Shown here piece after piece: positions 17,690 through 21,644 of a stretch of 64,000 bases of DNA (within the stretch, counting starts at the first letter, position 1; each line of letters starts with the position of its first letter). Origin of the DNA: a bacterium (lineage in GTDB: Bacteria; Sysuimicrobiota; Sysuimicrobiia; Sysuimicrobiales; Segetimicrobiaceae); the NCBI GenBank assembly GCA_035308905.1, contig DATGFS010000048.1:17437-81436 (forward strand), given 5' to 3'. The translations under genes were made by a program, and so were the position numbers. Under the pieces are notes generated by a model, which saw only the letters and a program-made list of their open reading frames with translations, searched no databases and was not told the origin of the DNA.

Positions 17690-18452
17690 TGTAGTCCATC
17701 CGGCCGCCGTCGACGGTGAGGATCTGCGCCGTCACAAACCCTGACTCGGGCGACGCCAGAAACGCGACCGCGTGCGCAACGTCGTCGGGCGCGCCGACCC
17801 GGCCGACCATTGCGCGGTCGCTGAGCCGTTTGACCGTGTCGCGCAGCTCCTGCTCACTGCGCTCGGCTTTCACCATGTCGGTGATGATGAACCCGGGGGC
17901 CACGGCGTTCACGGTGATGCCGTGCGGCCCGAGCTCCATGGCGAACCGGCGCGTCAGGGTGGATACCGCGGCCTTGGTGGCGGCGTAAAAGGTGGCACCG
18001 GGGAGCGTCGTCCCGTTGGCGGCGGCCGAACTGATGTTGATGATGCGGCCGTACCGCCGCTCCTTCATCGCCGGGACGACCGCGCGCGTGACGTGGATTA
18101 CCCCGTCTACGTTGGTGCGCCGCATCTGCTCGAACCGGCCCGGATCGAAGTCGTCGAGCGTCGCGCGGACGGACACGCCCGCGTTGTTGACCAGCACGGA
18201 GATCGGTCCCAGATCGGCGGCGGTTCGGTCGACCATCGCCGCGACCTGCCCGGGGTCGCCCACGTCCGCCCGCACCGTGATCGCGCGTCCACCCACGGCG
18301 CGGATTTCGTCCACGACGGCCCGCGCCTCATCGGCGCGGCCGCGGTAATTGACGCACACCGCGGCGCCGTGACGCGCCAGCCGGACGGCGATCGCCCGGC
18401 CGAGACCGCGGGATGCTCCGGTGACGAGTGCGATCTGCCCAGTCCAACTCAT
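17676..18452 (-). CDS. Short-chain dehydrogenase/reductase (FabG-like)
   Basis: TGASRGLG, NNAG, YAATK, VNAVAPG. Confidence 0.93.
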   Translation of the reverse strand: MSWTGQIALVTGASRGLGRAIAVRLARHGAAVCVNYRGRADEARAVVDEIRAVGGRAITVRADVGDPGQVAAMVDRTAADLGPISVLVNNAGVSVRATLDDFDPGRFEQMRRTNVDGVIHVTRAVVPAMKERRYGRIINISSAAANGTTLPGATFYAATKAAVSTLTRRFAMELGPHGITVNAVAPGFIITDMVKAERSEQELRDTVKRLSDRAMVGRVGAPDDVAHAVAFLASPESGFVTAQILTVDGGRMDYIGHS

Positions 18453-18504
18453 GGGGCTCAAGATATTCTGCTGCGCGCGGGAATCGCCTGCACCGCGGCG
18501 TGGA

Positions 18505-19155
18505 TCAGGGTGCGGCTTCGTGGTCTAGCCGCTTTCGTATGTGCGCCTTCCAGCTGTCTGGCAGCCCCGGCGCCTGTTCCGCGCGGATCAGCAGGTCCCG
18601 GCCGACCGTTTCGTCCGCATACAATCGGGTAATGTCCGCCACCGTGACGCCGTGCCGGTCCTGCTCGATCAATTCGATCTCGTCGCCCGCCTCCACCGTT
18701 CCCTCGCGCACGACGGCGAGATAGAAGCCGGTGCGGCCGCTGGCGAGGAAACGCCGCACCATGTCGCGCCGTCCGAATTTGACGCCGAGCTTGTAGCACG
18801 GCAGGCGGGGCTGTGTGATCATTATCTCCGCCGAGCCCACGCGATACCGGTCACCGATGTTGACCGCGTCCTCCCGCGCCCACGAGGCGGTGAGGTTCTC
18901 ACCGAACATCCCCCACGGCAGCGCCATCTCCGGAAATTCGTCCCGCCAGAACGCGTAGTGCTCCACAGGGTACACGTACACGGCCTTGTCCGGCCCCCCA
19001 TGAACCGTCAGGTCGGCCTGCCGGTCTCCGTCCAGGTTGAGCGTGCCCAGCCGCACCGGACCGTCGACCGGTTCTTTGAAGATTCCCGTCGTGATGCGGC
19101 GGTCGTTGATGGTGACCTCGCGCGGCAGCGACACGTTGACGGACACGATGTGCAT
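18505..19155 (-). CDS. MOSC domain protein with 3-alpha tail (YiiM-like)
   Basis: TGIFKEPV, GDRQADL.VHGGPDKAVY, FGENLT, QPRLPCYKL, GFYL.V. Confidence 0.92.
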   Translation of the reverse strand: MHIVSVNVSLPREVTINDRRITTGIFKEPVDGPVRLGTLNLDGDRQADLTVHGGPDKAVYVYPVEHYAFWRDEFPEMALPWGMFGENLTASWAREDAVNIGDRYRVGSAEIMITQPRLPCYKLGVKFGRRDMVRRFLASGRTGFYLAVVREGTVEAGDEIELIEQDRHGVTVADITRLYADETVGRDLLIRAEQAPGLPDSWKAHIRKRLDHEAAP

Positions 19156-19325
19156 GGCACGGCTCCCGGTGCGGCGGCGGACTCCAGACTATTTCTCTAC
19201 TTAGTCTTCGCTGCGGCGCCCGCGTTACGTCTGTAACAAAACCGGCCGTCGCGAGACCAATCTAGCAGACAGAATCGAGTGTAGAGAGATCGGGACCGGA
19301 CAAATCGAGAATGGAGGAGTGACAA

Positions 19326-19535
19326 ATGAAGTCGTTCCGCAAGGCGTTCGGGTTCGTTCTGGCAGCGGCACTGGTGGCAGGGGGGGCGGGGTTCGCGGCC
19401 AAGCCCGCGATGCTTCCCGTCGAGCACGACCGCAGCACGGCGCTCATCGTCGAACACGACCACAACAACGCGCTGATCGTCGAGCACGACCGCAGCATGG
19501 CGCTGATCGTCGAGCACGACCACAACAACGCCTGA
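19326..19535 (+). CDS. Small secreted repeat peptide (signal peptide plus 4x VEHD units)
   Basis: GGAGGAG SD; basic N-terminus and hydrophobic stretch; mature part VEHDRSTALI-VEHDHNNALI-VEHDRSMALI-VEHDHNNA. Confidence 0.75.
   Translation: MKSFRKAFGFVLAAALVAGGAGFAAKPAMLPVEHDRSTALIVEHDHNNALIVEHDRSMALIVEHDHNNA
19419..19532 (+). repeat. 30-nt tandem repeat x3.8 in alternating A/B units (60-nt superunit x2), in frame
   Basis: gtcgagcacgac cgcagca(c/t)g gcgct(c/g)atc alternates with gtcga(a/g)cacgac cacaacaac gc... Confidence 0.95.
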
Positions 19536-19550
19536 TCATCCTGAGGCCCG

Positions 19551-19592
19551 CGACGGCCCTCCCAGTCTCCCCCTCCCCCGGGAGGGCCGTCG
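19551..19592 (+). terminator. 13-bp inverted repeat downstream of the peptide gene
   Basis: CGACGGCCCTCCC (19551-19563) and GGGAGGGCCGTCG (19580-19592); no clear U-tract. Confidence 0.5.
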
Positions 19593-19679
19593 GCGCCTCG
19601 GGCCTGCCGCGGCCGCGCCGCGGCGTTCCGGACCTCTCGGCCGGAGGAATCTCTCCCGCGGTTTTGGAACGAGCCTGGC

Positions 19680-20351
19680 GTGCGTGATGGATATGCGGGG
19701 CCCGGGTCCGCCCTGCGGCCGTCCGATGCGGACGCGGGGATGGTCGCGCGCCTCCGCGCCGGGGACGAGGCGGCGTTTCTGAGCCTCGTCGAACGCCACG
19801 GGCCGGCGATGCTGCGGTTGGCCTCGATGCATCTCTCCCGGGCGGTGGCGGAGGAGGTCGTGCAGGATGCTTGGGTCGGCGTGCTGCAGGGCATCGGCCG
19901 GTTCGAGCAGCGCAGCGCGCTCAAGACCTGGATTTTCACGATCCTGATGAACCGCGTGCGGACGCAGGCGCAGCGGGAAGGGCGCAGTCTTCCATTCTCC
20001 GCCCTCGACGGCGCGGAGGGCGGCGCCGAGTCCGCGGTGCCGGCCGATCGGTTTCTTCCGGCGGATCATCCGCAGTGGCCGCATCACTGGGCCGCGCCGC
20101 CGAAGGACTGGGGCGGTTCTCCCGAAGATCGGCTGCTGTCGGCGGAGGTCCGGACGGAGATTCAGCGCGCCATCGACGCGTTGCCGCCGGGCCAGCGCGA
20201 AGTGATTACGCTGTGTGACGTCGAGGAGTGGTCCGCGGAGGAGGCGTCCGAATTGCTTGGGATCACGCCAGGCAACCAACGCGTGCTGCTCCACCGCGCC
20301 AGGTCGAAAGTCCGGCGCGCGCTCGAGCGATATTTCGAGGAGGTCGAGTGA
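19680..20351 (+). CDS. ECF RNA polymerase sigma factor
   Basis: GDEAAF..LV, AEEVVQDAW, KTWIFTILMNR, IDALPPGQREVITLCD.E, NQRVLLHRAR; exact start uncertain. Confidence 0.92.
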   Translation: MRDGYAGPGSALRPSDADAGMVARLRAGDEAAFLSLVERHGPAMLRLASMHLSRAVAEEVVQDAWVGVLQGIGRFEQRSALKTWIFTILMNRVRTQAQREGRSLPFSALDGAEGGAESAVPADRFLPADHPQWPHHWAAPPKDWGGSPEDRLLSAEVRTEIQRAIDALPPGQREVITLCDVEEWSAEEASELLGITPGNQRVLLHRARSKVRRALERYFEEVE

Positions 20352-20608
20352 TGGCGGCTTCAAACGAGATGAGCTGCCAGGAACTGGTCGAGCTGGTCAC
20401 CGACTATCTGGAGGCCGCGCTGCCGGCGGGGGACCGCCGACGATTTGAGGAGCATCTCACGGAGTGCCCGCCCTGCCGGGCGTATCTGGAGCAGATGCGC
20501 CACACGATCGGCGCGCTCGGCAGACTGCCGCGCGAATCGATCTCCGACGACGCCAAACGCGGCCTGCTCGACGTGTTTCGCGACTGGAAGAAGCGCACGC
20601 CGACGTAG
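20351..20608 (+). CDS. Soluble zinc-finger (zf-HC2/ZAS) anti-sigma factor
   Basis: TGATG overlap; SCQELVELVTDYLE...EHLTECPPC (HxxxCxxC). Confidence 0.9.
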   Translation: MAASNEMSCQELVELVTDYLEAALPAGDRRRFEEHLTECPPCRAYLEQMRHTIGALGRLPRESISDDAKRGLLDVFRDWKKRTPT

Positions 20609-20660
20609 CCCGCTCCGTAGAGGACCGGGCCCGCGCGGCTGCGAACACCCGATCCTGCCC

Positions 20661-21644
20661 ATGCCCAAGCCGCGCATTTATCTCACCCAGCCGATTCCCG
20701 ACGGGGCGCTGGCGCGTCTCCGGGGCCTGGGGCCGGTCGACATGTACGACGACCCGCTCACGATCGCGCCCCGCGACCGGCTGCTGGCGGGCGTGCGCGA
20801 GGCCGACATCCTCTTCTGTCTCCTCCACGATCGCATCGACGCCGAGATCATGGACGCCGGTGGGCGGTTGCGCCTCGTCGCCTGTATGGCGATCATTCCC
20901 GCAAACATCGATCTGGCGGCGGCGACCGCGCGCGGGATCCCGGTCACCGTGATTCCGCCGCTCGTGACCGAGGCGACCGCCGACGTCAACATGGCGCTGC
21001 TCCTCGCCGTGGCGAGGCGGATCGTCGAGGGTGACCGGCTGCTGCGGGCGGGCGTCTTTCCCGGCTCGCAGTCGATGCATCTCGTCGGCGGCACGGTACA
21101 CGGCAAGACGCTCGGCATCGTGGGGCTCGGCGCGATCGGACGCGAGGTGGCGAAGCGCGCGCGGGGCTTCGGGATGCGGGTGCTGTACTTGAAGCGCCGG
21201 CGGCTGCCGGAGGCGGAGGAGCGCGCACTCGGCATCGAGTGGGCGCCGCTCGACGACCTGCTGCGAGAGGCGGATTTCGTATCGGTGAACGCGCTCTTCA
21301 CGCCGGAGACGCGGCACCTCATCGGCGAGCGCGAACTCGGCCTCATGAAGCCGACGGCGTACATCGTCAATACCTCGCGTGGCCCGCTTATCGATGAAGC
21401 GGCCCTCGCGCGCGCCCTGCGGGAGCGCCGAATCGCCGGCGCCGGCCTCGACGTGTACGAGGACGAGCCGCGGGTCACCCCGGAATTGATCGACCTGCCG
21501 AACGTGGTGCTGACGCCCCACGTCGGCAGCGCCGACCGCGAGACCCGCGAGCGGATCGCCGGCGTCGTCGTCGACAACATCGAGGTGTGGCTGCGCGGGG
21601 ACCGCCCGCCGAACGTCGCCAACCCCGAGGTCTACGCGCGGTGA
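20661..21644 (+). CDS. D-2-hydroxyacid dehydrogenase (glyoxylate/hydroxypyruvate reductase-like)
   Basis: GIVGLGAIG, NTSRG, LDVYEDEP, TPHVGSA. Confidence 0.92.
   Translation: MPKPRIYLTQPIPDGALARLRGLGPVDMYDDPLTIAPRDRLLAGVREADILFCLLHDRIDAEIMDAGGRLRLVACMAIIPANIDLAAATARGIPVTVIPPLVTEATADVNMALLLAVARRIVEGDRLLRAGVFPGSQSMHLVGGTVHGKTLGIVGLGAIGREVAKRARGFGMRVLYLKRRRLPEAEERALGIEWAPLDDLLREADFVSVNALFTPETRHLIGERELGLMKPTAYIVNTSRGPLIDEAALARALRERRIAGAGLDVYEDEPRVTPELIDLPNVVLTPHVGSADRETRERIAGVVVDNIEVWLRGDRPPNVANPEVYAR

Follow-up and report, generated by a model that had tools for sequence, protein, structure and literature searches.

MrpX/BcrX, described in Azospira suillum and Brucella melitensis, is a methionine-rich periplasmic peptide built from MXKDX repeats (PMC4436054, PMC8315932). 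Methionine accounts for 20% of its residues and charged amino acids for 44%, its regulon comprises four genes, and it is oxidised by hypochlorite (PMC4436054, PMC8315932). In Caulobacter vibrioides, copper in the periplasm is buffered by the bufferins (BufA, DUF2282), whose genes adjoin those for SigF/NrsF (PMC11626156). In a stretch of 64,000 nucleotides, referred to here as the window, we analysed a gene for a 69-amino-acid peptide with repeated Glu-His-Asp (EHD) triads that lies upstream of an ECF sigma factor and a zinc anti-sigma factor (ZAS). The scope of the work is one lineage of uncultured soil bacteria, and the functional role proposed below is a lead rather than a result.

Like MrpX/BcrX, the EHD peptide is a small (and here predicted) Sec-exported protein that consists of a short tandem motif of reactive and charged residues, and it would likewise be the main output of a very small regulon of an adjacent ECF sigma factor with TGTAAC as the −35 element. 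The reactive residue, however, is methionine in MrpX and histidine flanked by glutamate and aspartate here, and the EHD peptide contains no MXKDX repeats. MsrP/YedYZ are not linked to the locus, the anti-sigma factor is a soluble zinc-finger protein rather than the six-helix NrsF (DUF1109) of ECF16, and the two peptides share no sequence similarity (no NCBIfam or Pfam match). With the bufferins the peptide has in common a small product with predicted Sec export to the periplasm, an adjacent ECF sigma factor and, as proposed here, a part in buffering metal stress. Unlike bufferins (BUF_6/12Cys), whose cysteines are converted to thiooxazoles, the EHD family has no cysteine, no linked modifying enzyme and no predicted fold, and neither MNIO (DUF692) nor DUF2063 occurs among the flanking genes in the window and related loci.

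SilE and PcoE, which are small and exported, have an intrinsically disordered chain in which short metal-ligand motifs recur, and they act as an induced first-line defence. Plasmid-borne in enterobacteria and under two-component control, they bind Ag(I) and Cu(I) with Met/His motifs. The EHD peptide is like them in its proposed role but lacks the Met/His motifs, and we know of no sequence similarity between them. Its regulators, in turn, resemble the SigR–RsrA, SigH–RshA and SigL–RslA pairs in combining Sigma70_r2 and r4_2 regions with an HxxxCxxC anti-sigma factor, which is soluble as is RsrA, but the host is a diderm non-actinobacterium and the sigma factor has a linker of around 50 amino acids between regions 2 and 4. 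An exported repeat peptide as the leading cistron is not known from any described ECF/zinc anti-sigma pair. As judged from sequence, the EHD peptide resembles MrpX, bufferins and SilE in its proposed role and is a member of none of these groups.

The repeat peptide and its predicted export

The peptide gene, delimited by its sequence, by family searches and by codon comparison, occupies positions 19326–19535 of the forward strand (stop codon included). It is preceded by the Shine–Dalgarno sequence GGAGGAG (19313–19319, forward strand), which lies 6 nt 5' of the ATG and of which GGAGG is kept in all aligned loci. The open reading frame translates as MKSFRKAFGFVLAAALVAGGAGFAAKPAMLP-VEHDRSTALI-VEHDHNNALI-VEHDRSMALI-VEHDHNNA, followed by the stop codon, with the four tandem units encoded at 19419–19532 of the same strand in a 30-nt period and a 60-nt super-period. 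For 19418–19537, Tandem Repeats Finder reported both a period of 30 with 4.0 copies (82% matches, score 163) and a period of 60 with 2.0 copies (93% matches, score 210). All of the elements named in the original prediction, namely the 69-amino-acid frame, strong Shine–Dalgarno sequence, signal peptide, four VEHD units and 30-nt repeat, are thus present in the sequence.

The N-terminus (encoded at 19326–19400, forward strand) resembles a signal peptide on the basis of its sequence, an AlphaFold helix and family-wide N-terminal conservation. Its basic residues are K2, R5 and K6, it has a hydrophobic core, and signal peptidase might cut it at GFA|A. Every family member likewise combines basic residues at the N-terminus with a hydrophobic core, and has small residues at −3 and −1; in several members, proline directly follows the most apparent cleavage site. 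These sequence features, which agree with the earlier proposal that the peptide is exported, fit a Sec signal peptide, and the protein is probably both exported and cleaved. The putative mature part of around 45 residues, with its VEHD motif, is acidic (pI of around 5.5, net charge of around −5) and contains 13% histidine and two methionines.

The host assembly is 4.0 Mb long with 69.4% GC. Its genome contains an Omp85/BamA gene and lacks WhiB, which indicates that the host is diderm and not an actinobacterium, and so places an exported peptide in the periplasm, its probable location.

As a separate observation, the VEHD tetrapeptide is also known from the caspase literature as a synthetic caspase substrate; the tetrapeptides (V/L/W)EHD are the optimal recognition sequences of caspases 6, 9 and 1. 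No gene for an Asp-specific protease is linked to the peptide gene, and in a soil bacterium the likeness is probably a coincidence.

Conservation and coding constraint in the EHD-repeat family

Around 45 relatives of the peptide, each with two to eight units, were recovered from soil metagenomes and from genomes of the same genus. A profile matched 29 proteins in a word-indexed search of 5.8 billion proteins, and HMMER, run exhaustively against 1.84 billion cluster representatives, contributed about a dozen further true members; the other HMMER matches were eukaryotic low-complexity proteins and were discarded. A loose DNA-pattern scan of the genome contigs returned chance matches only, with no true family member after screening. 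Four of the five other genomes of the genus carry a homologue, and all four homologues were read from the DNA. Their units differ: G003 has five to six 9-amino-acid VEHDRNALI units, G004 has three units, G005 has VEHDRSMA cores separated by spacers of 4–5 amino acids, and G001 has eight 12-amino-acid VEHDSNQASAPF units.

Tabulating the 177 units of 43 members yielded the motif [L/V/P][I/F/V][V/Y/I]-E-H-D-[R/S/N/H]-[N/R/S]-x-A. Glutamate is present in 158 of the 177 units, histidine in 168 and aspartate in 146, and every unit (177/177) has either Asp or Glu; in some units histidine is replaced by arginine or lysine (YERE, VEKD). No cysteine occurs in any of the 43 members. Units recur with a period of 9, 10, 12 or 13 amino acids (27, 30, 36 or 39 nt), the frame is always kept, and many members show a two-unit super-repeat of 19–20 amino acids in which short and long polar turns alternate. 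In 40 of the 43 proteins the stop codon falls 2–4 residues past the last EHD, that is, at a unit boundary. Repeat number therefore varies among the homologues with the frame retained, which is the opposite of the outcome that the original prediction had named as counting against it.

We then compared the codons of 37 core motifs from eight loci with the reference GTCGAGCACGAC. The differences comprised 18 at third positions, four at first positions (all changing V to I or M) and none at second positions, bearing out the suggestion, made from synonymous variation among the window's repeats, that selection acts on the protein. The antisense frame is also open in 8 of 8 loci, as is common at 69% GC, and in that frame the observed changes are non-synonymous. 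Together, the third-position pattern, the in-frame length variation and the existence of homologues demonstrate that the open reading frame is a real, lineage-restricted gene whose E-H-D residues are under protein-level constraint.

The family had been described as unrecognised, and this agrees with what we found. Searches of Pfam, NCBIfam and PDB sequences with the peptide gave only sub-threshold low-complexity matches, with no NCBIfam match at E ≤ 1; positions 18000–21000 had no match in Rfam; and we found no paper describing the EHD-repeat family in the literature. The exception is one member, P0007, that carries a precomputed match to PF27509.1, and if this entry describes the EHD-repeat family, the claim that the family is undescribed is weakened.

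AlphaFold2, supplied with family alignments, modelled the window protein with a pLDDT of 52 and the most regular member with one of 48. Apart from an N-terminal helix over residues 3–20, the models were disordered, and no strands were predicted. The combination of an invariant short core with spacers that vary in length and sequence likewise suggests that a linear motif recurs along a disordered chain, and speaks against a folded repeat. On this modelling, the mature part would be an intrinsically disordered chain carrying four copies of an eight-residue linear motif, each consisting of a hydrophobic triad, Glu-His-Asp and two polar residues.

These predictions bear on whether the peptide might instead be a structural, self-assembling component of the envelope, made of strand–turn–strand rungs that are possibly bridged by metal, or held by an uncleaved N-terminal membrane anchor. 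In length the 19–20-amino-acid super-repeat matches a curli-type rung, the hydrophobic triads are conserved, and the proline at +1 of the likely signal peptidase site in several members could be read in the same way. Both AlphaFold runs, however, lack strands, the unit length varies from 9 to 13 amino acids, one clade has Pro-rich spacers, and no nucleator or secretion genes are linked. The functional amyloids curli CsgA, FapC and chaplins, which are marked by regular strand–loop–strand repeats folded into a beta-solenoid and by linked genes for nucleation and secretion, differ from the EHD peptide on the same grounds, as it has no predicted strands, irregular units and no csg- or fap-like neighbours. 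The self-assembling beta-repeat put forward in the original prediction therefore finds no backing in the models, and we consider an envelope component very unlikely.

The ECF sigma factor module and its proposed function

Downstream of the peptide gene on the forward strand are an ECF sigma factor of 223 amino acids (19680–20351), which has Sigma70_r2 and r4_2 domains joined by a long linker between regions 2 and 4, and a soluble zf-HC2 anti-sigma factor of 85 amino acids (20351–20608), in which C9, H35, C39 and C42 include the HxxxCxxC motif. The zf-HC2 start overlaps the stop codon of the sigma factor (TGATG). Pfam matches identified the sigma factor (PF04542, 4e-12; PF08281, 2e-16) and the anti-sigma factor (PF13490, 3e-11; zinc site HLTECPPC), so that the neighbours have the features of an ECF/ZAS pair, namely Sigma70 regions 2 and 4 and a zf-HC2 domain with HxxxCxxC. 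The anti-sigma factor, whose nearest solved structures are RslA (3hug_B) and RsrA (5frf), has no membrane segment, and the signal that it receives must therefore be cytoplasmic. The neighbouring genes in the window encode a MOSC protein, the ECF sigma factor, the zf-HC2 protein, a 2-hydroxyacid dehydrogenase and PucR. The peptide gene is adjoined by neither a metal transporter gene nor one for a metal sensor.

Between the peptide and sigma genes, a GC-rich stem-loop was identified at 19540–19602 (forward strand) by folding and by its conserved position. Its core is GACGGCCCTCCC / GGGAGGGCCGTC, with a C-rich loop and no T-run. It folds with −65.8 kcal/mol over 111 nt (z = −3.5), none of 200 shuffled sequences folded as well, and its position is constant across all aligned loci. 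The hairpin is probably either a leaky terminator that attenuates read-through or a 3'-end stabiliser of the upstream message. Stem-loop folding and the Pfam domains thus agree with the order that had been read from the letters, a hairpin followed by an ECF sigma factor and a zinc anti-sigma factor.

Upstream of the peptide gene we found a bipartite motif, TGTAAC-N14-CGAGACCAAT (19232–19261, forward strand), which is conserved in seven of the eight aligned loci. In general form it reads TGTAA(C/T)-N14-CGAGAC(T/C)A and lies 70–95 nt 5' of the start codon; it is also present in G001, G002, L165, L169 and L170. The 4.0-Mb genome of the window contains exactly one copy. A loose genome-wide search produced one promoter look-alike (C32:792), which was left out of the regulon owing to its different spacing. 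Conservation and uniqueness suggest that the motif is probably the promoter of a peptide–sigma–anti-sigma operon, with a putative assignment of its halves to −35 and −10. The −35 half reads exactly as the ECF16 element does (TGTAAC), and the spacing matches no published ECF consensus. Since the motif is single-copy, the regulon would consist of this one operon if the neighbouring sigma factor reads it. The same motif precedes whichever small gene lies ahead of the sigma factor in G002, in the decayed locus of G001 and, in part, in G006, and its retention before differing small genes is the pattern expected of the promoter of an autoregulated operon.

The order peptide, hairpin, sigma factor and 85-amino-acid anti-sigma factor is found in the window's genome (G000), G003, G004, G005/L155, L023, L026, L165, L168 and L170. 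For four further members a sigma orthologue is probably on the same contig, as the longest contigs of the peptide and sigma clusters are equally long. The sigma family itself is very large, with at least 7,992 proteins at E ≤ 1e-20 (8,000 candidates scored). In other lineages, sigma orthologues at 60–70% identity have upstream of them a gene for an MGWYRCSCGF protein, an OsmC gene or no gene at all, which suggests that the peptide is a young addition confined to roughly one genus. In the sister genus (L153, L156), the sigma factor is preceded by a conserved cytoplasmic open reading frame of 75–90 amino acids, MGWYRCSCGF...HLHRAARVDG, and in G006, also of the sister genus, a partial motif stands before an unrelated cytoplasmic small open reading frame.

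Several loci have lost part of the module. In L024/L025, the hairpin runs straight into the last 15 codons of the anti-sigma gene; both assemblies, which are independent, show this clean scar of a deletion. L169 retains the promoter motif and hairpin and has no sigma or anti-sigma gene within 2.5 kb downstream, and in L171 there is an insertion sequence upstream and the sigma/anti-sigma pair is gone. At all of these loci the peptide frame is intact despite the missing pair, indicating that the peptide may not need this sigma factor; among all loci examined, only G001 lacks an intact frame. That locus (L152, 1255–1745; contig C122) is a decayed module from which the repeats and the sigma start have been deleted, so that what remains, namely the promoter motif, the ribosome-binding site and the signal peptide, is joined in frame to a sigma gene that has an internal deletion and a TGA. 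Two other loci, in G002 (L150) and GCA_035945995.1 (L157), have the same motif and a homologous signal peptide with a non-repeat mature part, an unrelated sequence of 48 amino acids that is rich in Ala, Pro, Gly and Thr and ends in DRDHEFNR. Different cargo in the same slot suggests that the mature part evolves fast.

The earlier suggestion that the peptide is linked to the ECF sigma factor accordingly stands in part. Gene order, upstream motif and hairpin recur in most loci, but the association does not extend beyond about one lineage of genus rank, at least two deletions have removed the sigma/ZAS pair and spared the peptide gene, and the paralogues described below are linked to Crp/Fnr. The same findings could be taken to mean that the gene is young and dispensable with little or no function, a translated repeat expansion in the leader of a sigma operon that is being lost piecemeal. 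Its confinement to about one genus, the decay of the G001 locus into a signal peptide fused to a truncated sigma gene, the repeated deletions of the sigma/ZAS pair and the replacement of the mature part in G002 would all suit such a history. Set against this, E-H-D has been kept across two subfamilies with different regulators and through independent repeat expansions, the codon differences show the third-position pattern, and the frame is intact at every examined locus other than that of G001, all of which makes a dispensable gene improbable in our view.

By analogy with MrpX/BcrX and the bufferins, the interpretation that we tentatively favour is that the peptide is made under stress and serves as a sink in the periplasm, with divalent transition-metal ions as its most likely target. 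The peptide gene would be the first cistron of a self-contained module of promoter motif, peptide, hairpin, sigma factor and soluble zinc anti-sigma factor. A cytoplasmic signal would inactivate the anti-sigma factor at its Cys-His-Cys-Cys site, likely in the form of an oxidant that reacts with thiols, an electrophile or a thiophilic metal, and the sigma factor would then transcribe the module, with the hairpin letting the peptide message accumulate in excess over that of the regulators. After Sec export into the periplasm and probable cleavage of its signal peptide, the peptide would bind Zn, Cu(II), Ni or Co through its Glu/His/Asp triads. Zn, Ni, Co and Cu(II) are usually coordinated by a ligand set of histidine with aspartate or glutamate; the acidic, His-rich loop of ZnuA is an example. 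Metal binding is our first choice because Glu, His and Asp are all conserved, which suits this ligand set and exceeds what a scavenger would need. Weighing against this reading are the units in which arginine or lysine takes the place of histidine, the loss of the sigma/ZAS pair at several loci, the Crp/Fnr-linked paralogues, the non-repeat cargo of G002 and the lack of a metal transporter or sensor gene beside the peptide gene. The conserved hydrophobic triad that precedes EHD is left unexplained by simple chelation, as it is by every other reading considered here.

The peptide could alternatively sacrifice itself as a scavenger in the periplasm, with histidine in the part that methionine plays in MrpX; its histidines would be consumed by hypochlorite, singlet oxygen or reactive aldehydes, agents that would also trip the cytoplasmic zinc anti-sigma factor. 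The MrpX/BcrX-like architecture, with a signal peptide, a short tandem motif of a reactive residue plus charge, a tiny ECF regulon and a TGTAAC-type −35, is in keeping with this proposal, as are the resemblance of the anti-sigma factor to the oxidation-sensitive RslA and RsrA, the OsmC gene directly upstream of an orthologous sigma factor elsewhere and a putative AhpD-like selenoprotein gene 2.4 kb away. Yet Glu and Asp are as conserved as His, although a pure His scavenger would not need them, no linked repair enzyme comparable to MsrP/YedYZ is present, and the mature part contains 9–13% His as against 20% Met in MrpX. We regard the scavenger as possible but doubtful, again by analogy.

If the peptide is indeed a sink, it would be the third and a chemically distinct case of an ECF sigma factor paired with a small exported peptide that absorbs the stressor, using a plain Glu-His-Asp triad with no modifying or repair enzyme where MrpX uses methionine and the bufferins thiooxazoles. 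Slippage within the tandem repeat could then tune the capacity of the sink, and the motif would offer a simple, synthesisable sequence of 8–10 residues for studies of metal or oxidant capture.

Paralogous peptides with predicted export and a linked Crp/Fnr-type regulator

A paralogous subfamily with the N-terminus METIRKAIG includes the eight-unit gene of G001 and a 106-amino-acid gene in the window's own genome. Genes of this subfamily are divergent from a Crp/Fnr-type regulator, lie behind a TGTGA-N6-TCACG site (L007, L160) and have downstream of them the gene for another small exported peptide, the third of the set (MNTIRKALG...), with a repeat-free mature part. In the window's genome, this second locus is on contig C48 at around 234,700–236,000 (L002, 970–2500), around 154 kb past the window end. 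Halfway along the 106-amino-acid paralogue there, its two to three EHD units give way to four APAGFGSE(L/V)RG units; the non-repeat MNTIRKALG... peptide comes next with 61 amino acids, and the same type of hairpin follows each peptide gene.

This hairpin type, GGCCCT(C/T)CC / C-rich loop / GGGAGGGCC, occurs in the genome only after the three related small-peptide genes, which suggests that the duplicated unit comprises signal peptide, cargo and hairpin. The peptide and its two paralogues have the signal peptide and the probable terminator hairpin in common and carry completely different cargo. Separately, the loops after all three genes are C-rich (CUCCCCCUCCCCC or CCCCCCACCCCC) and contain CCUCC (19563–19578 for the window loop). 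As CCUCC is complementary to GGAGG ribosome-binding sites, a long-range pairing or regulatory role is conceivable.

The variable cargo raises the question of whether the peptide is a multi-core precursor, exported by Sec and cut between its units into peptides of 9–13 amino acids of the (A)LIVEHDRN type that would act as diffusible signals or unmodified metal carriers. Termination at a unit boundary in nearly all members, a copy number of 2–8, a conserved N-terminus ahead of a highly variable mature part (including the non-repeat version of G002 and the third related peptide gene) and the hairpin after the gene, as in peptide operons, where one after the precursor gene is common, are all compatible with such processing. 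However, the units within one protein differ, no conserved cleavage dipeptide stands out, and no protease, maturase, transporter or receptor gene is conserved beside either subfamily, in contrast to the multi-core RiPP precursors (graspetide, cyanobactin). With no maturase or dedicated protease gene in its support, the precursor proposed in the original prediction appears unlikely.

In a specific form of this idea, the peptide would be an unmodified multi-copy metal carrier or signal. Following Sec export, housekeeping periplasmic proteases would release four to eight LIVEHDRN-type peptides, each with a Glu-His-Asp triad, with the copy number tuning the dose and the cytoplasmic redox- or metal-sensing sigma/anti-sigma switch controlling production. 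We give this version little credence. If it were true, the peptide together with its two paralogues would define a new class of bacterial cassette that joins a conserved leader to a hypervariable exported peptide.

On contig C32, at around 880–1300, the window's genome encodes another exported low-complexity protein, in which a signal peptide and a hydrophobic segment accompany roughly twelve PSAPSQ repeats; upstream of it, a ACCAGTAACGCG element is present in duplicate.
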